IMG/VR virus record: IMGVR_UViG_2660238683_000009
Span: 1-41,078 of that record
From: a virus
Taxonomy: Duplodnaviria; Heunggongvirae; Uroviricota; Caudoviricetes
Direction: 5' to 3' (one strand)
DNA length: 41,078 bases
Part shown: piece by piece, positions 3,219 through 35,264 of the stretch
Layout of the letters: the number at the start of each line of letters is the position of its first letter
Numbering within the stretch: position 1 is the first letter of the stretch
Made by a program: the position numbers and the translations under genes
The notes under the pieces: generated by a model
Seen by the model: the letters and a program-made list of their open reading frames with translations, nothing else
Databases searched by the model: none
What the model was told of the DNA's origin: nothing

Positions 3219-3898
3219 CAGAGTAATACTCCCCATGCCCCTACATCAAAACCACTGATGAATTCGTTATCCATATCAAAACCAAAAAATTTAGAGCCTT
3301 CCGATGGAGTTTCCACCGAAGGTGTTTCAATGCCACCCGCCCATACCCCGGCGGCTTTTACTGTTAGATACCCCTGTTTAATTGCCGCAATTAACTCACG
3401 CGATACATCTGAAATATCAGTATCAGGAAAGACCCAGACCGATATCGTCATGTCCTGGTTATCGACTATCTGCATTCGCAGCCCGGATCCTGCTGTTGCA
3501 GCGTCAAGAATTGCCGGAAGCGAATCATTCCGTCCGTCCCAGTTATTAATCGCAATCTTCGCTTTAAGGATGACACGATAAGTTTCATCGCTGAGGTACA
3601 TGTATCCGGAATCAGGATCGTATGGCCCCTGCCATACACCCTGATCATATCCAAGCCCGTCGGTATCCCAGCTGAAATAGACACCTGAGATAGGCTGGCT
3701 GACAACACGGCTACGCCCGATCCACAATCCCAGAATGTCAAGTTGCACACCAACGGCAGAGTCAATATCAAATGCAGTAATCAGCCCTCTGGTGGCAGCC
3801 GCAACATCAATAAGCGGCCGGGTCATCAGATCAACATGTGCAAGAAATTTAGGTTTGGTGGCGTGGTAGTTCGTGATTAGTTCGGTGTATTTGCTCAT
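3218..3898 (-). CDS. Baseplate/tail protein, Mu gp48-like (DUF2313/YmfQ-like)
   Basis: 226 aa, position between baseplate J-like gene and tail fiber; 4-nt ATGA overlap with upstream gene; recalled resemblance to e14 YmfQ/Mu gp48. Confidence 0.45.
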   Translation of the reverse strand: MSKYTELITNYHATKPKFLAHVDLMTRPLIDVAAATRGLITAFDIDSAVGVQLDILGLWIGRSRVVSQPISGVYFSWDTDGLGYDQGVWQGPYDPDSGYMYLSDETYRVILKAKIAINNWDGRNDSLPAILDAATAGSGLRMQIVDNQDMTISVWVFPDTDISDVSRELIAAIKQGYLTVKAAGVWAGGIETPSVETPSEGSKFFGFDMDNEFISGFDVGAWGVLL

Positions 3899-5094
3899 GA
3901 CTCCACCGTTATAACGATATTTTCCGGGGTACAGGACGCAGATTCGTTGTATCTGATATCAATGTTTGATGACGACAAAGCCCCCGGGGATTTCCCAATC
4001 GTCAGTTCCTGAATATCGTAATAGCGTGCATTCCCGCCACTCACCACGCCAAGATTCGCCGGTGAGTAAATGCGACTTAAAAGGACCGAATCACCGATCG
4101 TCAGACTATTGATATAGTCGGAAATAGCCTGCTGGATCTGCTGCCCTATCTGTGAGGTATAACCCGTAAAAACTTTTAATTTAATCCGGGCATAAACAGG
4201 CACATCACTGGAACGAGAGAATTTGATTACATGGGGATTGCCGTATTTATCCGGAACCGTAACGGATGTTGTACCGTGAGTGGCTGTCCCCTGGCCTTTA
4301 TTCCCTCTGATAGCCTGAGCAATATCCGTCACATCACCGCCATCCACAATTACAGCAACAGAGTGTGGCGGTAACCCGTTACCGTCCTCCGAACCAGTAT
4401 CGTTTTCATAGAGTTTGTGGCGGGTTACACCGGTAACATTAGAAACGGCACCATCCAGTGCTTCAAATGGGGTTATTGATGGCAACGCAACACTTTGCGA
4501 CTGGCGGATACGTAACTCAGCATCAGTTTCTGCTGGAGTGCCTACAGTAGCTGCAGCAGGATTGGTTACCGAAACCCAGCCACGAGTCGGTGTGTTAATG
4601 GTGGTAATAGTCCCGGCCATCGCCGCAACCGAACCGCTATTCGCACATGTGGCCGTCACCAGCACAGTACCATCAACCCCGATTGCTACACTCGCGGGAA
4701 AATTCCAGATAATGCCGTTTTTATCCCGTGCGGAGCCATTCGTGATAGTCGTGCCCGCCGTACCGGTTAACAGAAGGTCAGCAGTAGAGTTTGTCGCTAC
4801 TTTTCGCGTGATCCCGTTAATTTTCACATTGCTGCTAAGCGCTGCGGCCTGCGCTGTCGTCGGTGAAAACGAGTTGTAGATCTCGATAGCGGTATTGTTA
4901 GCATCATGCACAGCCAGAGCCACCAGCGCGACCATTTGCCCATCTTTGCTGTCTGGTTCGAGGTAGGCATCACTACCGTAAATCTGCCTGAAATAGCTGG
5001 TCAGTGTATCGAGGATTGTCTGGTAATCAGGCGCACTAATCCCCTGGGCGGTTACCGTTGCCGATAGCCCCAGCGTGTCGAGGTTCAAAGCCAT
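3895..5094 (-). CDS. Baseplate J-like protein (Mu gp47-like)
   Basis: 399 aa; size, position and sequence character consistent with baseplate J family. Confidence 0.55.
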   Translation of the reverse strand: MALNLDTLGLSATVTAQGISAPDYQTILDTLTSYFRQIYGSDAYLEPDSKDGQMVALVALAVHDANNTAIEIYNSFSPTTAQAAALSSNVKINGITRKVATNSTADLLLTGTAGTTITNGSARDKNGIIWNFPASVAIGVDGTVLVTATCANSGSVAAMAGTITTINTPTRGWVSVTNPAAATVGTPAETDAELRIRQSQSVALPSITPFEALDGAVSNVTGVTRHKLYENDTGSEDGNGLPPHSVAVIVDGGDVTDIAQAIRGNKGQGTATHGTTSVTVPDKYGNPHVIKFSRSSDVPVYARIKLKVFTGYTSQIGQQIQQAISDYINSLTIGDSVLLSRIYSPANLGVVSGGNARYYDIQELTIGKSPGALSSSNIDIRYNESASCTPENIVITVES

Positions 5095-5448
5095 TTATGC
5101 CTCGCTTGTTACAGTCGTCTGGCCGTAGATTGTGTCAATGGAGGAAGTGAAAGTGACGCGTCGGCTGTTGCCGTCATAATTGGTATCGAAGGAAAGAATC
5201 GACAGAACGCCCGGCGTGTCCTGTATGCGTTCGCGTATAGCCAGGATGTAGACGTCTGATCGCTGTTTCCCAAGCACTGACTGAACATACGGCGTACCTT
5301 CCGTCAGATCGAGAAACCACTGACCGCGCCACAGCTCGAAACGGGTTTTTACGGCCTGGGCGACACACTCCGGACTGTCTATAAGGAAGGTGTCGTCACC
5401 CTGCCCGAAAGTGTAATCACCGTCAGCATCTTCTCGTCGGTATCGCAT
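5095..5448 (-). CDS. Baseplate protein (gp46 / GPW-gp25-like)
   Basis: 117 aa, tightly coupled between V-like and J-like genes. Confidence 0.45.
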   Translation of the reverse strand: MRYRREDADGDYTFGQGDDTFLIDSPECVAQAVKTRFELWRGQWFLDLTEGTPYVQSVLGKQRSDVYILAIRERIQDTPGVLSILSFDTNYDGNSRRVTFTSSIDTIYGQTTVTSEA

Positions 5449-6188
5449 TATTGCGGCCCTCCAGTAGTTCCCCCGCCTGTCTGAACTCCGCCATGTTTAT
5501 GCGTGGCGACACTTATACCTGAAGCTGTCACATCATTCGTTACCGTAACCGGCCCAAGCATCGTCGCAGTACCACCACTTTCTCCCATTCCCTGAGACAG
5601 GTTACCGTTAATCGTTACGTTGCCGTTCAGCGTGATGGTCGGGGATGTGATTGTCGTTCCACCTTCAGCCGTAGCCGTAAGCTGGCCCGGCGTTTTAATG
5701 GTGATGTTATGTCCTGCAGCGACCTCTACGAACGCCGCACCATCATCGGTTCGCAGCTGCGCGGCGCTGGTGCTGATACCACTGATTTTCTGTGCTTGCG
5801 ACTGCGGGCCAACGATGGCGAACGCATCAGATAAGTCATGCTGGCGCGGGTCGACGGTCTCCTGAACGCCGCCGCTCTGCCACCAGAAATCTATGCAACG
5901 GTCGGCAAAGATCAGCAGGCACTCGTCGCCTTCTTTTACCGGAAAGGTCAGCGTGCAACCGCCGCCGCGCGGGAAGATAACCGGCACATCCACCAGCGGT
6001 TTTAATTCGGTGGAGCCATCGCCAACAATACCGCGAAGCGCCACTTCTACTGTGCAGGTTACAGCGTCAGGATCGAACGACTGAATGATGCCAGGCATCG
6101 CCACGCGCATTTGGGTAGACACTGAATCGGCAATGGCCTGCGCGGTCTGCTGCTCACCGCCGATCTGTGATTGAGTTGGAATTGGCAT
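5448..6188 (-). CDS. Baseplate spike/assembly protein V-like (Mu gp45-like)
   Basis: 246 aa; Gly/Thr-rich C-terminus (GGVQTGGGTTGG) typical of spike proteins; position upstream of W/J genes. Confidence 0.5.
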   Translation of the reverse strand: MPIPTQSQIGGEQQTAQAIADSVSTQMRVAMPGIIQSFDPDAVTCTVEVALRGIVGDGSTELKPLVDVPVIFPRGGGCTLTFPVKEGDECLLIFADRCIDFWWQSGGVQETVDPRQHDLSDAFAIVGPQSQAQKISGISTSAAQLRTDDGAAFVEVAAGHNITIKTPGQLTATAEGGTTITSPTITLNGNVTINGNLSQGMGESGGTATMLGPVTVTNDVTASGISVATHKHGGVQTGGGTTGGPQ

Positions 6189-6198
6189 AAAAACCCCA

Positions 6199-6220
6199 TA
6201 AAAAAACCAGCCGAAGCTGG
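6199..6220 (-). terminator. Putative intrinsic terminator (minus-strand hairpin + U7) immediately upstream of baseplate gene V
   Basis: Minus strand reads CCAGCTTCGGCTGG followed by TTTTTTT; sits between the AT-rich insertion and the V gene RBS. Confidence 0.4.
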
Positions 6221-6399
6221 TTTGGTATCAATTACTAAGCTACATCAGTGTGAAGTAAGGCTTTTCCGCTGCAATGGCACACATTCACAAGGTGTATTAG
6301 GATATGTTTGCAACAAGTAAGCATTAAAAATCAATTTCAGCCATGAAGCCGCCATAGAGTGGACCTGCACCATCGCATTCTTGACTACAGGAGTAACAA

Positions 6400-6690
6400 A
6401 TGGGATTTAGATTTCGCAAAAGAATCCGGATTGCGCCCGGACTCGCGATCAACATTAGCAAAAGCGGAGTAAGCACTTCGATTGGTGGTAAAGGTTCCAC
6501 CATTAACATCGGGAAAAAAGGCGTAAAGATGACAAATGGCCTTCCCGGCACTGGGCTGTCGCATACCACTAACCTTTACTCTCCCGGAAAATCGACAGAA
6601 AAAAAACAACTTACTCATAAGCAAAAAATAATTAGAAACATCCTGTTCGTAATTATTTTGTTTATTATAATTAAAGCTCAATATTTTTGA
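6400..6690 (+). CDS. DUF4236-family small membrane protein
   Basis: 96 aa; N-terminus MGFRFRKRIRIAPGLAINISKSGVSTSIGGKG matches the DUF4236 signature as I recall it; C-terminal hydrophobic helix (NILFVIILFIIIKA); AGGAG RBS 7 nt upstream; opposite orientation to the surrounding tail operon. Confidence 0.6.
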   Translation: MGFRFRKRIRIAPGLAINISKSGVSTSIGGKGSTINIGKKGVKMTNGLPGTGLSHTTNLYSPGKSTEKKQLTHKQKIIRNILFVIILFIIIKAQYF

Positions 6691-6695
6691 CGCAT

Positions 6696-6725
6696 GCCCG
6701 CCTATCTGGCGGGCTATTTTACTTT
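6696..6725 (+). terminator. Intrinsic terminator after DUF4236 gene
   Basis: GCCCGCC-TATCT-GGCGGGC hairpin followed by TATTTTACTTTT on plus strand; overlaps 3' end of convergent lipoprotein gene. Confidence 0.5.
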
Positions 6726-7604
6726 TCGGCAGTCGTATGTTGCATACTGTCGCGGCGCATCCATGCTGGCTTGTACCCACTGAGCGTTTAGGATGGCTTT
6801 TCCTTTACGTTTAATGTATTCAATACCAACCCAACGACCGGGCAGACTGGTAGCAACCATCCACTCCATTTTTATATTATCCGGTTCGTTGTTAGTGCTG
6901 CCACCAGCACCGATGGGAGTAATTTTTTGCGTCTCTGGTTTCGCGCCATTAATTCTGGCCCAGCCATCAGCAGAGGAAAGATCTATCCTATACGGTCCAC
7001 AAACTATTATGTAATTGATGCCAAGTTTTTCGTTGCTGCGAGCTTTCCTGCTTTTCTCATAATCTTCCTTCGCAACATCATTCATCTTTTGATAGATAGC
7101 AGGTTGTTTTAAAGAAAACTCATTCAGCTTCTTAATAAAGTTTTCTCGCGGAACCTCTGCAAGCCCCATAGATTTTCTATCAAGGATATAGTCATCATAT
7201 ATCTTTGACACAACAGAAAGTGATGACAGTTTTTTAGCTAAATCATTTGCAAAGTTTAGATAATTAAGTGGTGAGTTGTCTCTTATATCAATAGCTCTAA
7301 CTCCACCTGTACCGTATTCATGATAAGCAGCATAAAAAACAGGTATACTTTCAGGTTTTTTGTTAATCGCTTTAATTAGTCCTTCTGGACCGCAAGACTC
7401 TCCACTCCAGTCAATAAGCGACTTCCCTTTCGATTTCCATGTTTGGCAATCATCAGCTGATAAAATTAAAATTGGCTGCCACCCCGGGCGTTTTTTGTAA
7501 CTAACATTCTTATCAGAATTGAAGCCTGCATTTGCGCATCCAGAAACGAGCAGCACCGACAGGAAAATCACACTGTATCGAAGTCCATTCATGTTCTTAT
7601 ACAC
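6714..7604 (-). CDS. Predicted lipoprotein of unknown function (cargo gene in baseplate operon)
   Basis: 296 aa; signal peptide with lipobox (LLVSGC); AT-rich relative to flanking tail genes; start abuts stop of upstream hub gene. No family recognised. Confidence 0.6.
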   Translation of the reverse strand: MYKNMNGLRYSVIFLSVLLVSGCANAGFNSDKNVSYKKRPGWQPILILSADDCQTWKSKGKSLIDWSGESCGPEGLIKAINKKPESIPVFYAAYHEYGTGGVRAIDIRDNSPLNYLNFANDLAKKLSSLSVVSKIYDDYILDRKSMGLAEVPRENFIKKLNEFSLKQPAIYQKMNDVAKEDYEKSRKARSNEKLGINYIIVCGPYRIDLSSADGWARINGAKPETQKITPIGAGGSTNNEPDNIKMEWMVATSLPGRWVGIEYIKRKGKAILNAQWVQASMDAPRQYATYDCRKVK

Positions 7605-8672
7605 TCAACCTCCTCCTGAACGAGCTATAGTCGCCTGGCTAATCAGATCACGAGCGCCACGCGCAAAGCACATCAAATCCATGTACCACGCCTGACCTCT
7701 GGTGTCACCAGTATAATCGATAGCTTTGACGATATAAACGCCATCCGTCGCAATGCTGGCAGCCTGTGACGTTGTGCCGGTCAGCACACGATTGCCGTTT
7801 TCTTCCGTCTCGGTGATACGCCCGGGCGACTGTGCGATTTCGCTATTGCCGAGCGCGGCGCGGTACACCGAAGCCTGATCGAGCTGGATAAGACCATTAA
7901 TGCGGATGTTCGGGTTTATCAGGCACCGCACGTTTACGCCGCCGCCCATCGTTTGTTGCGGCATACCGATCAGGCCAGTATCTGCATTCAACAAAATGGC
8001 TTCGTGAATATATTTATCATCCGGCACCATCTGGACCTGACCATCCACCAGCTGCCATGTCGCTTTGCACTGCGCAGCAATATTATCCATCACGTTACGG
8101 GTGGATGAGTAAATCGCGCGGCCACGAGGAAACACGGTATCAGGAAAATCACCGGTAATGCCCTGTGTCACGCCGAACGCGTTGAAATCCTGCATCGTCG
8201 CCCGGTGCAGATCCGCAACGGTATAGCCAGCGGCAAGCGTGGTGATGGTGGTCGCATAGAGGAACGCTTCGTGATCACCAATGGCCTGAATCAATACCCA
8301 GGAATCCGTAATGTTGTCCTTCCCGGTGACGGTAAAGCGAATATCACCGTCAAAAATCAGGCCGTAGTTCTGACCATTTACCTGCCCTATCTGGTCTGGT
8401 GAAATCTCACGGGCGACACCAACCTGGCTCGCATCAACATCCTGCGCTATACCGTCATACCCGGCAATGATGCGAATTTTGGCAAACTCCTGCCCAAGGA
8501 TCTTATTCGTGGTATCGGTGGAAAGGTTATAAATTTTCACGTTAGCCACGCGCGGCCAGCGTGTGTCTGCCCACTCGATCTGGAACGTGACCTTAAAATC
8601 TGACAGAGAAACGCCCTGCCCGTTCTGGTCCAACAGCTGCAACTCAAAATGGCGCATCCAGTTAAGAGACAT
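7605..8672 (-). CDS. Baseplate hub / late-control-D-like tail protein
   Basis: 355 aa; position between tape-measure-proximal genes and baseplate spike; size consistent with Mu gp44/P2 gpD class. Confidence 0.4.
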   Translation of the reverse strand: MSLNWMRHFELQLLDQNGQGVSLSDFKVTFQIEWADTRWPRVANVKIYNLSTDTTNKILGQEFAKIRIIAGYDGIAQDVDASQVGVAREISPDQIGQVNGQNYGLIFDGDIRFTVTGKDNITDSWVLIQAIGDHEAFLYATTITTLAAGYTVADLHRATMQDFNAFGVTQGITGDFPDTVFPRGRAIYSSTRNVMDNIAAQCKATWQLVDGQVQMVPDDKYIHEAILLNADTGLIGMPQQTMGGGVNVRCLINPNIRINGLIQLDQASVYRAALGNSEIAQSPGRITETEENGNRVLTGTTSQAASIATDGVYIVKAIDYTGDTRGQAWYMDLMCFARGARDLISQATIARSGGG

Positions 8673-8674
8673 TT

Positions 8675-8980
8675 CTACTCCTGAACGAAAATGAGGTGGC
8701 TGTATGTGCCGAGATTGGTTTTGGTGGGCTCGTCCGGTGCGCCCTTATCGGTCGCCACCACCAGCGCGCCATCAATGCCAAGCTGTGGATATTGTCGTAA
8801 AAGGTTTACGCCGGTCAGTAGAGGTACGCCAGAGAGAAGCGCAGCACCGCCGCTATCCATCACGTCCATAATCCAGCCAGCCGCATCACGCCAGATAATC
8901 CTGAGCGTATACGTGGTATTGCCCAGCAATACGCGGAACTGCTGATTGTCAGGAGAAAGCGGTATTTCGTTAAACTGCAT
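8675..8980 (-). CDS. Tail protein, hypothetical
   Basis: 101-aa ORF tightly packed in tail operon. Confidence 0.3.
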   Translation of the reverse strand: MQFNEIPLSPDNQQFRVLLGNTTYTLRIIWRDAAGWIMDVMDSGGAALLSGVPLLTGVNLLRQYPQLGIDGALVVATDKGAPDEPTKTNLGTYSHLIFVQE

Positions 8981-8981
8981 A

Positions 8982-9584
8982 TCATCCCCCTAATGCTGAT
9001 GTAACGCTTCCGCCCAGCTGGCTCAGCAAGGATTCGTTTGGCGGTGTAGTGGATTTCGTCCCGGAATTTTGCACCGCCGATGTGCTGACGCCATCCTGCA
9101 TATCTGATTTATCAGCAACGCTAACGCTCTGCGTTTGCGACATGATTACTTCACGCAGGGTAAGCGTGCAGTTCAGTACGTTCTCGCTGGTTTTATCGGT
9201 CGTCACCTCAATGGCACGCACCAGCATATTGGTGTACACCCTCTTCCCGGTAATCACATCGAACGGCACGCGCTCAAGCTGCATATCCAGCAGCTTTTGG
9301 TATGTCTCCTTTGGGCTAAGTCTGGCGCTGAGGCCGATTGACGATGTATCAATGAAGTCCAGCAACGAACCGCCACCTGCGAAGCCGCATTCCATCGTGA
9401 CTTCGCTGGGGCGCTTATACGCATGATCGGCGATGAAACCCGACGCGCTATTCGTTGTTGGCTTCTCCACCGGGTGCTCAGTAATTTCGAGCGCATCAGA
9501 ATGCTTTTCAGAAACAACTACGCTGGGGATTAATATGCCAATTCGCCGGGATTGCTGGCGAAAAATAGCTGATAAAATATCCAT
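8982..9584 (-). CDS. Tail protein, hypothetical (immediately downstream of tape measure)
   Basis: 200-aa ORF; start overlaps tape measure stop region. Confidence 0.3.
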   Translation of the reverse strand: MDILSAIFRQQSRRIGILIPSVVVSEKHSDALEITEHPVEKPTTNSASGFIADHAYKRPSEVTMECGFAGGGSLLDFIDTSSIGLSARLSPKETYQKLLDMQLERVPFDVITGKRVYTNMLVRAIEVTTDKTSENVLNCTLTLREVIMSQTQSVSVADKSDMQDGVSTSAVQNSGTKSTTPPNESLLSQLGGSVTSALGG

Positions 9585-32545: not shown

Positions 32546-33592
32546 ATGTCAGCGATTGATCAACCTGCGCAATATGTTATCAAGTCAGAAGACGACTTTG
32601 TATCTTTTGTAACGGAAATGCTCGGAAGGAAGGATATCGACTCAAGCGACTTCACATTCCCTAACGTAGTTTTCAGTGGATGGCCAAAGATCAATATTAA
32701 TGTAAAAGGCGATCCAAATAGATATAATTCTTCATTGACTGCGTCAATGCTTTTTGGTATGGCAGAGCTTACGCATGAAATACAAAAAGCATTTACGGTA
32801 GTCAGTCACAGCACTCATAATCGGCAGAAGCTAAAAGATGCAGAGAAAGGTTTGCTGGATATTGTCTACCGAATAAGCGAAGGCTCAAGCCAAGCGGATG
32901 GTGACTCAGATCCGATTGTAAACGGAGTGGTGACAGTGTTTACTCAAGCGATAGGCAAAATGACAGGAAGGCAAGCACTATGCGCCGTCGCCGCTATCGT
33001 CTTAGCTGCCAGCACGGTAGGCTATAAGTGGATCAGTGAGTACTACGAAACACAGCGACATGACCAAGATTCTCAGGTGCAATTGGTGGAAAAAAGCACC
33101 AAAGCGGTAAACGAAGCACAAGACAATGTGCTCAAGTTGTTGATTAGCGGTCAAACAAACATTAGCAGAGAGGTTCTGGCTCACGGCGAGGATGGTAAAA
33201 GCAAGTTGCTTAAAAAGCTTGCTCAAGACTCGTCAGTTGAGAGGGTAACAATTGGTCAGAGAGTGGTAAATAGAGAACAGTTGAATACCTTAAACCAAAG
33301 ACAATCAATTGATCGAAAAAAGGAAACTAGAAGAGATAACTTTTATGTCACGGGCGTTCGTCGCTCGGGAGAAACAAATCAGGACATAAATATTGACGTC
33401 ATAAGGGTTTCAAATGGTGAATCTTTCACCATAAAAACCTCAGCCGACATAACATCTACTGATGAGCTTCTTGAGTTTTTGAATGCTGTAGCCAAAGAAT
33501 CAACTGTTGAAATTTCATACCTAGAGGTTGTAGAAAATGGGCACATTTCAACAGGGCAATTGATAAATATATTCCCCAGCGAACCAGAGTGA
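32546..33592 (+). CDS. Hypothetical protein with one predicted TM helix, immediately downstream of cI (rexAB-equivalent slot)
   Basis: 348-aa ORF with AAGGA RBS; single central hydrophobic helix (ALCAVAAIVLAASTVGY); AT-rich; followed by strong terminator. No family recognised. Confidence 0.6.
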   Translation: MSAIDQPAQYVIKSEDDFVSFVTEMLGRKDIDSSDFTFPNVVFSGWPKININVKGDPNRYNSSLTASMLFGMAELTHEIQKAFTVVSHSTHNRQKLKDAEKGLLDIVYRISEGSSQADGDSDPIVNGVVTVFTQAIGKMTGRQALCAVAAIVLAASTVGYKWISEYYETQRHDQDSQVQLVEKSTKAVNEAQDNVLKLLISGQTNISREVLAHGEDGKSKLLKKLAQDSSVERVTIGQRVVNREQLNTLNQRQSIDRKKETRRDNFYVTGVRRSGETNQDINIDVIRVSNGESFTIKTSADITSTDELLEFLNAVAKESTVEISYLEVVENGHISTGQLINIFPSEPE

Positions 33593-33603
33593 TGCACTCC
33601 AAA

Positions 33604-33629
33604 CCCGGCCACCGAGCCGGGTTTTTTTT
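33604..33629 (+). terminator. Intrinsic terminator ending the cI operon
   Basis: CCCGGC-CACCGA-GCCGGG hairpin followed by TTTTTTTT, 12 nt after the stop of the 348-aa gene. Confidence 0.65.
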
Positions 33630-33791
33630 GCCTCTCGATCCCCCACCTAAAAAACATAACTCATTGTATTTATTGAAAAACTGATTGATACAACTTGCTA
33701 AACCACGCAATCCAGATCTCCCTCAAATCTCTTTATTTATCCTGTCGAATTCCTACAACAAAATAAAACACCATAAGAATCAATACGATAT

Positions 33792-33848
33792 TTGAAAATC
33801 AAAAGAATTTATCATTTTGCTATTGCCATTAATTTATCATTCCGATAA
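33792..33848. promoter_or_regulatory. OL/PL-like operator region upstream of N
   Basis: Same motifs as the cro-cI region: TTGAAAATCAA (33792..33802), AATTTATCATT (33806..33816) and TTATC-N5-GATAA (33834..33848). Confidence 0.4.
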
Positions 33849-34195
33849 AGTTTTCCCATCAGCAGGACGCACTACTCACCAGGGCGGTGAATATACAACG
33901 ATTCGAATATGAATCTACGGCGCTGACAAAGCGCAATAACCAAAGTGAACTTTGGGGTGTGGTGAAGCCAGCTAGTCACTGGCAAGTGCTTACCTACTGT
34001 TGAGCGGTGAAGCGCTCCCAACGCTAGCAATAGCGTGGACGAGATGGGGAGCCGCGGGCGATAAGGCCGCCATAACGCGCACGTTGTCGCATGGAAAAAT
34101 CACTGGGGTGCCGGTTATACCCCTCCGAATGAGACTCAACAAGCTGGAGCTAGACTACCAGCCACCACACCACCAAAGTTCATCAGGAGGTCTAT

Positions 34196-34579
34196 ATGAC
34201 ACGCAGAACTCAGTTCAAAGGCAATTCACGTTCTCGTCGTCGTGAGCGTTTAAAGGCAAAGGCATTAGCTAACGGCGTACTGGCCCGCGAAGAAGCAATA
34301 AGTTCAGAAGTATTACACCGCCCTACTCTAAGCAGAGCGCAGATTCAGGCTAAAGGTACTCACGAAACGCCTGAGCGCATAGAAGACGCTAAGCCAATTA
34401 AGTTCATGGCACAGGACGTGATCTGGCAACAGAAAGAATACAGACGCAATCTGGAGAGAGCGGCCATTGTGTACGCGAATGAGTTTGGACATAAGCAACC
34501 AGAAACTGGTGTATGTCTTCCAAATGTAGCTCTTTACGCGGCAGGCTATCGGAAATCAAAACAACTGACAGCAAGGTGA
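34196..34579 (+). CDS. N: N-like transcription antitermination protein
   Basis: 127 aa; N-terminal arginine-rich motif (NSRSRRRERLKAKALANG) like the lambda N boxB-binding ARM; first gene of the early-left operon. Confidence 0.5.
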   Translation: MTRRTQFKGNSRSRRRERLKAKALANGVLAREEAISSEVLHRPTLSRAQIQAKGTHETPERIEDAKPIKFMAQDVIWQQKEYRRNLERAAIVYANEFGHKQPETGVCLPNVALYAAGYRKSKQLTAR

Positions 34580-34640
34580 CTTGTGTTGGTCGCCAGAAAA
34601 TAAAATTAGGCAGCAAACCACTTATTTGAGAGGAATTAAT

Positions 34641-35264
34641 ATGTCATCAATCCGCTTAACTACGAGAATGAAAGAGAAAATCGCTCGTAACGCTTTAATT
34701 AAGTCTGGGGTTTTCACTGAACTTGAAGAAGTAACAAAGTTAAAGAACCAGCTTGCACTTGACGCCAGAGTTATTGCGTTTGGCGGTAAAAAGAAAACTG
34801 AGGAAGTGGATCAGTTATCATCCAGGTTAGTAGCTATAAGTGAAGAACTTGAAAAGATGGGATGTTCATTTTACTCATACGATGTTCGTTCTACTTCAAT
34901 TTATCTGACTGTATCTGGCAGAAGGGTTGGATGGCATTCATATGGGAAAGACGGCAACGGCGAAGATATATTGCTCCCTACTCCAACCAAAGATAAATGC
35001 ATGTTTGATGCAGAACACGAAATAACAAAAAGGTTTGATGAAATCTGCGCATTGCAACAAAAACTTGAAGCCAAGAAAAAGGATATCGAATCAAATGTAT
35101 TGGCTGCTTTGAACTCAGTCACAACAGTTAAGCGACTTATTGAAGTTTGGCCTGAAAGCAAAGAATTGCTACCAAAAGAAGCAGACAAAGCAAGTACAGC
35201 ACTTCCTGCTTTACGGGTAGAAGATTTGAATAAGATGATTGGACTTCCTTCCGAGTCCGCATAG
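34641..35264 (+). CDS. Hypothetical protein (ral/sieB-equivalent slot)
   Basis: 207 aa from Met with GAGAGGA RBS (ORF track starts 34581); no family recognised. Confidence 0.5.
   Translation: MSSIRLTTRMKEKIARNALIKSGVFTELEEVTKLKNQLALDARVIAFGGKKKTEEVDQLSSRLVAISEELEKMGCSFYSYDVRSTSIYLTVSGRRVGWHSYGKDGNGEDILLPTPTKDKCMFDAEHEITKRFDEICALQQKLEAKKKDIESNVLAALNSVTTVKRLIEVWPESKELLPKEADKASTALPALRVEDLNKMIGLPSESA

Follow-up and report, generated by a model that had tools for sequence, protein, structure and literature searches.

An exported lipoprotein with a tape-measure-like motif and an opposite-strand DUF4236 protein at a hub-spike accessory locus, possibly concerned with phage exclusion, in a lambdoid Escherichia coli prophage

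The T5 protein Llp and the Cor proteins of phi80, N15 and T1 are outer-membrane lipoproteins that face the periplasm, exclude further phages by blocking their receptors, and are encoded by genes linked to tail-tip genes. In the 41,078-nucleotide stretch of tailed-phage DNA analyzed here (IMG/VR record IMGVR_UViG_2660238683_000009; hereafter the window), the interval between the baseplate hub gene and the gene for baseplate spike V (positions 6189-7604) carries one gene for a 296-residue exported lipoprotein and, on the opposite strand, one for a 96-residue DUF4236 protein. Tentatively, and with somewhat less than even confidence, we read both products from their sequences as accessory envelope proteins that would act on incoming phage (superinfection exclusion) rather than as parts of the virion. 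The lipoprotein resembles Llp and Cor in being a phage-encoded lipoprotein of outer-membrane type whose gene is linked to tail genes, but it is much larger and has two domains, and its informative feature points to the tape-measure protein (TMP), not to an outer-membrane receptor.

Ltp of phage TP-J34 is built of helix-turn-helix repeat domains. A prophage lipoprotein of Streptococcus thermophilus, it blocks DNA injection (PMC3952083). Its host is Gram-positive, no similarity to the lipoprotein described here was detected, and no copy of a TMP sequence has been reported for it. The original prediction, drawn from the bare sequence, had invoked factors of the Llp and Cor type, a comparison that we retain as analogy only: a profile search of PDB sequences gave no relevant Llp or Ltp match at E up to 10, Foldseek against the PDB gave no match at E <0.1, and the PHROGs and Pfam scans matched no Cor-type family and returned only phrog_3443, no direct comparison with a Cor sequence having been made.

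For the DUF4236 gene, the relevant precedent is the gp15 moron of HK97 (Juhala et al. 2000; Cumby et al. 2012), a small inner-membrane protein with a single transmembrane (TM) segment, encoded by a unit of foreign composition that has its own terminator and lies in the tail operon beside the tape-measure gene; gp15 excludes superinfecting phage in a tail-dependent manner, without the receptor being blocked (PMC3594210). The DUF4236 cassette is alike in anatomy and in the kind of location it occupies. However, gp15 belongs to the YebO family and DUF4236 (PF14020) has no sequence relationship to it; a Pfam scan of the protein gave PF14020 only, with no match to the YebO/gp15 family. Also unlike gp15, the DUF4236 protein is encoded on the opposite strand, is predicted to be tail-anchored with a beta-rich cytoplasmic domain, and is known from sequence alone.

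SNIPE (PD-Lambda-1) is a membrane nuclease that cuts phage DNA during injection and associates with TMPs, and some of its homologues have N-terminal regions homologous to a phage penetration protein, the P22 tail needle (PMC13190303). It acts at the injection site and sets a precedent for defence proteins that borrow pieces of the entry machinery, but it is a cytoplasm-facing nuclease, whereas the lipoprotein here is predicted to be periplasmic and carries no nuclease or other catalytic signature. Motifs of mycobacteriophage TMPs are reportedly enzymatic (peptidoglycan hydrolase) and are said to help infection. Unlike these, the segment shared here is non-enzymatic, and its non-TMP copy is phage-encoded and lies in an exported lipoprotein. 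Short segments of mycobacteriophage TMPs reportedly resemble, in sequence, proteins that bacteria secrete (Piuri and Hatfull 2006; PMC1796659). By analogy, the anatomy of our locus is that of a moron, and its closest functional analogues would be HK97 gp15, T5 Llp/Cor, Ltp and the T4-type periplasmic exclusion proteins. Literature searches on defence hotspots among tail genes found no description of this hub-spike locus, and a search for DUF4236 found it named in one unrelated paper only; as far as the searchable literature shows, the hub-spike accessory locus, the family of lipoproteins bearing a TMP motif, and the consistent residence of DUF4236 in tail operons are new.

The interval that holds the two genes is foreign in composition relative to its flanking genes. 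GC content is ~0.41 over 6189-7604 versus 0.532 in the hub gene and 0.568 in V, and GC at third codon positions (GC3) is 0.60 in hub and 0.58 in V versus 0.33-0.42 in the genes between them. In a sliding scan, the 600-bp segment at 7001 (GC 0.375) ranks second lowest in the 41 kb (mean 0.499, standard deviation 0.047). Within the lipoprotein gene the 5' 600 nt have a GC of 0.377 and a GC3 of 0.33, and the 3' 291 nt, which encode the C-terminal domain, a GC of 0.474; the DUF4236 gene stands at 0.392 and the V-proximal intergenic DNA at 0.412. The AT-richness originally noted by eye is thus borne out by segment GC, sliding-window GC and GC3 alike, and all the features described at the time were found at their coordinates. 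The lipoprotein gene is divided as follows.

6714-7604, minus strand: open reading frame (ORF) of the exported lipoprotein, 296 aa, two domains, GTG start
7536-7604, minus strand: signal peptide of the lipoprotein (aa 1-23), closed by the lipobox L-V-S-G-C; Ala at +2
7008-7535, minus strand: AT-rich, all-helical N-terminal domain (N-domain), aa 24-199
6717-7007, minus strand: C-terminal beta domain (C-domain; phrog_3443), aa 200-296, with conserved Cys202 and Cys292

The GTG start lies immediately after the hub TGA (GGAGGAGGTTGA/GTG), so that the Shine-Dalgarno sequence would be provided by the 3' end of the hub gene. The same start codon is kept in the Enterobacter homologue, and the Dickeya homologue (49% identity) sits at the same position with its start likewise abutting the hub stop. 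The N-terminus (MYKNMNGLRYSVIFLSVLLVSGC) displays a positively charged n-region, a hydrophobic core and the lipobox VSGC ending in Cys23, the features expected of a lipoprotein; both the abutting start and the lipobox claimed originally are therefore present. A lipobox is found in 20 of the 23 family clusters and also in distant relatives of 350-370 aa. In E. coli, Ala at +2 directs a lipoprotein to the outer membrane, and by this rule the protein, presumably acylated, should be sorted to the outer membrane and hang into the periplasm.

An AlphaFold2 (AF2) model places helices of the N-domain over residues 35-188 and seven strands in the C-domain, with residues 1-30 disordered; the predicted local distance difference test (pLDDT) score is mostly 74-97 over residues 31-180 and drops to 59-67 towards residues 181-200, at the domain junction. 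Residues 200-296 match positions 23-114 of the 115-position profile of PHROG 3443 (E 3.3e-34), to which PHROGs assigns no function. Searches of PADLOC, NCBIfam, Pfam and PDB sequences gave no match to the lipoprotein. A weak tblastn match to the transglycosylase region of the TMP (E 0.25) had suggested that the N-domain might be a degenerate SLT/lysozyme fold. The idea was not supported by hhalign against the SLT region of the TMP family (0.3% probability, E 0.24), and a search with E values as high as 5 gave no Pfam SLT match for any of the 23 family members.

Over 3.3 kb surrounding the interval, the window shows 99.9% identity with a prophage in the chromosome of E. coli FJ_Ec_21 (NZ_CP143627.1), in which RefSeq/PGAP annotates only the last 96 codons of the lipoprotein gene, as a pseudogene "incomplete, missing N-terminus" (window 6714-7001, corresponding to L001 21315-21602 in NZ_CP143627.1), and leaves the 5' 600 nt unannotated. 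Full-length homologues nevertheless form 21 clusters with identities down to 42%, from Serratia, Dickeya and Pectobacteriaceae among others, and against the Enterobacter bugandensis homologue the ratio of nonsynonymous to synonymous substitution rates (dN/dS) is 0.087 in both domains, with dS at 0.77-1.11. Given this purifying selection and conservation, the ORF is probably an intact, functional gene and the RefSeq call probably wrong, apparently an annotation error that affects a real protein family. In a large protein collection, the exact 296-aa protein was found in Logan assemblies only.

A tblastn search with the N-domain against all retrieved loci returned an unexpected match to tape-measure genes, which led to a short segment common to the lipoprotein and the phage's own TMP:

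7392-7463, minus strand: tape-measure-like motif in the lipoprotein, aa 48-71, LSADDCQTWKSKGKSLIDWSGESC, enclosed by two invariant cysteines, Cys53 and Cys71
10616-10684, minus strand: original motif in the phage's own TMP, aa 328-350, LLYDDYKTWKEGGKSLIDWSKWE

When lipoprotein residues 48-67 (LSADDCQTWKSKGKSLIDWS) are aligned with TMP residues 328-347 (LLYDDYKTWKEGGKSLIDWS), 14 of the 17 residues of the motif core are identical. The similarity is apparent at the level of families as well: hhalign pairs the lipoprotein family with the window TMP at 88% probability (E 2.9e-6) and with the TMP family at 94.7% probability (E 6.2e-8), and a hidden Markov model of the lipoprotein family, run against 359 six-frame ORFs of the window, matched the TMP alone (E 5.4e-5; next best E 2.2). 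The motif region accounts for seven of the 22 invariant columns of the lipoprotein family, and in the AF2 model it spans a helix end and the loop after it. The DNA of the two copies has 53% identity over the motif, and the codon is the same for only six of the 14 identical residues. A recent transfer of DNA from the TMP gene is ruled out by these values, which suggest instead that the similarity has been maintained at the protein level.

In the TMP, the motif precedes the SLT domain and falls between two hydrophobic, membrane-inserting segments (293-332 and 379-411). Its consensus, [DE]DY[KQR]TWKEGGKSLI[DN]W, is near-invariant across the 20 TMPs of the genome set, those with a hub only 57-70% identical among them, and at least 120 IMG/VR contigs have it as well, some of them tails with hub identities as low as 26-30%; among the 80 IMG/VR contigs retrieved, 74 motif occurrences lie in ORFs of at least 400 aa. 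Judged by this distribution, the motif is a TMP hallmark. Literature searches on conserved TMP motifs found no description of this consensus. An analysis of covariation between the lipoprotein and TMP motifs was uninformative, the TMP motif being almost invariant.

How the lipoprotein gene is constituted in relatives was followed in two surveys, one of 31 genome or phage loci with hub and V, the other of 37 IMG/VR loci that were retrieved by a scan for the TMP motif and counted if the hub was at least 55% identical. A phrog_3443 protein is encoded directly after hub in 30 of the 31 and 35 of the 37 loci, respectively (~65/68). In most of them it takes a short, Sec-secreted form, usually of 110-120 aa, in relatives that span Enterobacterales: the first survey comprises 23 short forms, 7 long forms and 1 other, the second 34, 1 and 2. 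The long-form loci of the first survey are the window, its twin L001, two from Dickeya (L007 and L008), L010, one from Enterobacter (L017) and one from Phytobacter (L025). In sister E. coli prophages, the post-hub gene encodes a protein of 114-116 aa with a Sec signal (...AFA/DQQCG..., ...ALA/DTQCG...) and the same mature domain, from the first conserved Cys to a C-terminal YDC-KVK. The long form of the window keeps this disulfide-containing beta domain of ~95 aa in full, with the Sec signal swapped for a lipoprotein signal and ~175 additional residues.

This extension has a patchy distribution. The long form was found in four of 5426 E. coli genomes and the N-domain is absent from 48 of 52 E. 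coli relatives, including short-form sister prophages whose hubs are 96-98% identical. Long forms appear at three separate places in a tree of the C-domain, and the N-domain is also joined to an unrelated C-terminal domain in lipoproteins of 350-370 aa, one of them outside any tail module. Its polyphyly and its varying partners indicate that the N-domain is a mobile add-on. On this evidence only the AT-rich N-domain (~200 codons) and the lipobox constitute the add-on, whereas the C-domain is a resident exported module. The original view of the lipoprotein gene as inserted cargo therefore holds for the N-terminal ~200 codons but not for the C-domain. That view was to be abandoned if the genes proved conserved in all related tail modules with matching composition; the C-domain is indeed near-universal, but its composition still differs from that of its neighbors.

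Where phrog_3443 is missing, the position after hub is filled by other exported proteins: a 379-aa lipoprotein in Serratia sp. PL17 (L020), distantly N-domain-like and with a different C-terminal domain, and, in the IMG/VR loci L118 and L047, a 242-aa lipoprotein and a 154-aa Sec-secreted protein. In four more distant IMG/VR tails that have the TMP motif and a hub 26-30% identical (L111, L099, L053 and L062), the hub-V gap is 65-286 bp with no gene inside. An exported gene after hub is thus a trait of this family and not a requirement of the baseplate type. P0085, a 937-aa protein with a signal peptide, has five segments that resemble a portion of the phrog_3443 C-domain (profile positions 233-280), and the C-domain may therefore also occur as a repeat.

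The remainder of the interval, between the lipoprotein gene and V, contains the following features.

6400-6690, plus strand: DUF4236 protein, 96 aa (Pfam PF14020, 73.6 bits against a cut-off of 27, residues 3-55)
6696-6714, plus strand: intrinsic terminator of the DUF4236 gene, GCCCGCC-loop-GGCGGGC with a T-rich tail, 7 GC pairs
6204-6223, minus strand: strong intrinsic terminator directly upstream of the V start, absent from the original prediction
6189-6399, no strand: intergenic DNA of the DUF4236 cassette, expected promoter region

The DUF4236 gene has a ribosome-binding site (RBS), AGGAG, at 6389-6393, 6 nt 5' of its ATG. Its product is small and basic, and ends in a hydrophobic segment (residues 74-96, nt 6619-6687; Kyte-Doolittle 2.55). 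The AF2 model (pLDDT 81) shows a six-strand beta domain (residues 1-60), a linker and a helix (residues 73-95), and 46 homologues share this build, in which a 55-aa domain is conserved, the linker varies and a TM segment forms the C-terminus. We conclude that this is a predicted tail-anchored inner-membrane protein with its beta domain facing the cytoplasm. The convergent gene with RBS, terminator and C-terminal TM helix was hence described correctly at the outset. Weak Foldseek matches to the phi92 spike and to a contractile-injection-system spike (E 1.5) raised the idea of a mimic of the spike beta-helix, which was ruled out by hhalign against the window V (1.2% probability).

The DUF4236 family is widespread across Proteobacteria, and in all six genomic contexts inspected the gene lies inside a prophage tail operon, of myovirus or lambda-like siphovirus type. 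It occupies the same slot on the opposite strand in Hafnia, twice in Klebsiella and in another E. coli, separates the TMP gene from gpM in a Leclercia prophage of lambda-like type, and lies between gpK and gpI/J in Pseudomonas syringae. As a single unit, the 525-bp cassette (6189-6713) is carried by 18 of the 5426 E. coli genomes. In a second architecture (~167 aa), represented by P0100, P0105, P0107-P0109, P0112 and others, from Vibrio, Photobacterium and Oceanimonas, the DUF4236 domain is followed by bacterial SH3 domains (PF08239, PF06347), which may bind the cell wall.

The distance from the exported gene to V varies between 43-62 bp in six loci, including Rahnella L018 and Pantoea L030, and 1.8 kb, and the GC content of this slot is always 0.35-0.49 versus 0.50-0.60 in its flanks across the surveyed loci. 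The DUF4236 cassette shows three hallmarks of a moron in the Hendrix/Juhala sense, namely insertion between otherwise adjacent genes, foreign composition and a terminator of its own; insertion is seen for the N-domain too, but not for the C-domain, a resident of nearly all relatives. The slot is empty in some relatives, and the opposite-strand DUF4236 gene, originally called atypical for a structural gene, is accessory cargo of this variable position. Other cargo of this slot includes a homologue of PD-Lambda-1 in Pantoea dispersa (L024; E 2.8e-82), a PDC-S42 candidate in Pantoea ananatis (L021; E 1.7e-36), a toxin-antitoxin pair annotated as Phd/Doc in E. coli ECONIH5 (L002), and several small secreted or membrane proteins. 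The presence of the first three identifies the slot as a defence hotspot inside the tail operon.

Further cargo was noted in passing. A two-gene pair similar in size to Phd/Doc occupies the slot in Yersinia aldovae (L019), and a cassette of two genes (~257-273 aa and ~127-165 aa), such as the pair of 257 aa and 131 aa, recurs in at least five loci of different genera (L010, L025, L033, L073 and L118); the L010 pair (L010 2225-3380) had no Pfam or PADLOC match, and the cassette is a candidate defence pair. A second recurrent pair, in L022, L023 and L029, encodes proteins of 149 aa and 108-156 aa, the second of which combines a coiled coil and a TM segment. In Klebsiella phage ST340-VIM1phi10.1, a 61-aa opposite-strand gene (L013 3826-4011) that is not DUF4236 lies directly after the exported-protein gene and adjoins a gene for a 188-aa protein with an HEAGH metalloprotease-like motif.

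The terminator at 6696-6714 runs into the stop codon of the lipoprotein gene; as a minus-strand hairpin it is weak. At the V junction, a hairpin is present for every cargo type inspected (ECONIH5, Hafnia, Klebsiella and E. coli L046), and in the empty-slot loci L018 and L030 a canonical terminator still separates the exported gene from V. With its start coupled to the hub stop, the lipoprotein gene should be at least a late lytic gene. As was pointed out originally, a transcript reading past its stop would be antisense to DUF4236; the geometry confirms this, and any transcript that reaches V must cross the DUF4236 gene.

The exclusion hypothesis is strengthened by the known defence genes in the same slot of relatives and by the TMP motif within the lipoprotein. 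The envelope-acting exclusion function proposed originally accordingly remains the most reasonable hypothesis, but receptor blocking is not specifically indicated, since the sole concrete clue points to the TMP and hence to a post-adsorption step. In a more specific version, which we regard as doubtful, the lipoprotein would be a TMP mimic whose disulfide-bracketed loop, DD(Y/C)xTWKxxGKSLIDW, blocks injection by phages of this tail family; jointly with this, the ubiquitous short form of phrog_3443 would supply the system with its basal arm in the periplasm, and tail-anchored DUF4236 proteins would form a widespread class of exclusion factors within tail operons. Tethered to the periplasmic face of the outer membrane, where tail tip and TMP emerge after sheath contraction, the lipoprotein would act after adsorption with its TMP-like loop as a decoy, which could either occupy the binding partner of the ejected TMP segment or join TMP oligomers and poison them; by either route, formation of the DNA channel would be prevented. 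DUF4236 would interfere at the inner-membrane step, like HK97 gp15. Late transcription, presumably Q-antiterminated, would pass the weak minus-strand hairpin at 6696-6714, cross DUF4236 in antisense and then pass 6223-6204 to reach V, so that read-through would silence DUF4236 in lytic growth and its expression would be favored in the lysogen.

Several points weigh against the exclusion reading and its decoy version. The match between lipoprotein and TMP covers only ~23 residues and could reflect shared ancestry, or contact with lipid or peptidoglycan, instead of mimicry, and after ejection the TMP loop may be periplasmic or cytoplasmic. The AF2 model of the lipoprotein had no significant fold match in the PDB or BFVD, nor did that of the DUF4236 protein in the PDB, and neither protein matched any PADLOC model at E up to 1. 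Exclusion genes normally differ from one related phage to the next, and a C-domain kept almost universally at one position is unusual for them. Finally, no convincing promoter for either gene emerged from a consensus scan or from cassette comparison: the sigma-70 scan gave no site upstream of DUF4236 and chance-level numbers elsewhere (5 found, 5.2 expected), and the sole conserved element in an alignment of six DUF4236 cassettes was TTGACTACAGGAG at the RBS. Expression of the two genes in the lysogen is consequently a prediction only.

If not exclusion factors, the two proteins might be envelope proteins of lysogenic conversion, as lambda Bor and Lom are, and serve the host in some way that has nothing to do with phage entry (for example serum resistance, adhesion or envelope stress). 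An outer-membrane-type lipoprotein and a small membrane protein encoded by AT-rich, moron-like DNA with a terminator would suit such a role, and morons are known to serve diverse host-directed functions (PMC3594210). We nevertheless think this fairly unlikely, because the hub-spike position is fixed across genera, a TMP motif lies inside the lipoprotein, DUF4236 recurs specifically within tail operons, and no Pfam match to Bor or any other such family was found. A different possibility is that the exported protein works in the periplasm for the phage's own lytic cycle, for instance by restraining the lytic transglycosylase of the TMP, aiding egress, or sparing progeny from infected cells and debris. 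The last of these is a second role proposed for T5 Llp. Co-transcription with the late genes through the coupled start fits this idea, as does the SLT domain of the TMP, and the near-universal C-domain favors it more than it would a typical exclusion gene; we still consider it unlikely, as the identical prophage has a separate lysis cassette annotated elsewhere, no PDB fold similarity to known inhibitors of lysozyme or transglycosylase was detected, and distant tails with the same TMP motif do without the exported gene. That DUF4236 is instead a membrane toxin or abortive-infection effector, killing or depolarizing the infected cell, seems distinctly unlikely: a small, basic, tail-anchored product, the toxin-antitoxin and defence genes found in this slot elsewhere and a convergent antisense layout reminiscent of small-toxin control are all compatible with it, but there is no partner antitoxin gene and no PADLOC match, and the gene is kept on its own in 18 E. 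coli genomes and widely across Proteobacteria.

The conserved place of the lipoprotein gene in the baseplate block and its translational coupling to hub might also speak for a structural or assembly component of the baseplate, be it the whole protein or the C-domain. This is very improbable, as the lipobox or Sec signals and the Cys pair are conserved throughout the family, unrelated exported proteins take the place of the gene in L118, L047 and L020, distant relatives with adjacent hub and V have no such gene, its composition is foreign, and a terminator follows it even when the slot is empty; the protein is hence better seen as exported than as structural. Likewise, the PGAP annotation of an incomplete gene would be explained if the ORF were a decayed remnant made of a truncated phrog_3443 gene and junk sequence, a reading that is largely refuted by the complete mature C-domain, retained from its conserved Cys onward, by the confidently folded N-domain of the AF2 model, and by the full-length architecture of the 21 clusters together with the dN/dS and dS values given above.

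Were superinfection exclusion by a TMP-like loop to hold, a decoy carrying a piece of TMP would represent a novel block to the injection of phage genomes, and the TMP loop would be marked as a functional contact in the poorly understood crossing of the periplasm and inner membrane by myovirus TMPs, a step that would then become testable through a defined 17-residue motif. The hub-spike interval of SEN34-like tails constitutes a conserved two-part accessory locus, comprising an exported protein and a variable slot, and a new place to look for defence genes. DUF4236, an uncharacterized family found throughout Proteobacteria, gains a specific hypothesis.

The window corresponds to a lambdoid prophage of E. 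coli, next to bio/ybhB, whose contractile tail belongs to the E217/Pam3/SEN34 type. The FJ_Ec_21 prophage adjoins bioA/ybhB, and its early and late control genes are lambdoid (nin region, Q antiterminator, lambda-type holin); the lysis cassette annotated away from its tail module consists of holin, endolysin and lysis protein. The Pfam families of the contractile tail module carry the names of Pseudomonas phage E217 and cyanophage Pam3. The same module recurs in Salmonella phage SEN34 (Brunovirus), in temperate phages of Klebsiella and Escherichia, and, as part of prophages, in Dickeya, Pantoea, Rahnella, Serratia and others; it is present in 52 of the 5426 complete E. coli genomes searched. 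The tail genes flanking the accessory locus in the window are these:

9584-11665, minus strand: TMP, 693 aa, SLT domain at aa 527-627
8982-9584, minus strand: Dit-like protein
8675-8980, minus strand: plug
7605-8672, minus strand: baseplate hub, 355 aa (PHROG 196 "baseplate hub", E 3.6e-83; Pfam E217_GP41)
5448-6188, minus strand: baseplate spike V, 246 aa (Pfam spike N-terminal domain, E 1.3e-41, and GpV Apex motif)
5095-5448, minus strand: sheath-initiator-like protein
3895-5094, minus strand: baseplate J

The other strongly AT-rich stretch of the window, at 32546-35264, contains the 600-bp GC minimum (0.368, near 33250). It begins with a 348-aa ORF (32546-33592) that had no Pfam or PADLOC match, followed by an N-type antiterminator (34196-34579) and then a protein with an Nmad5 domain (34581-35264).

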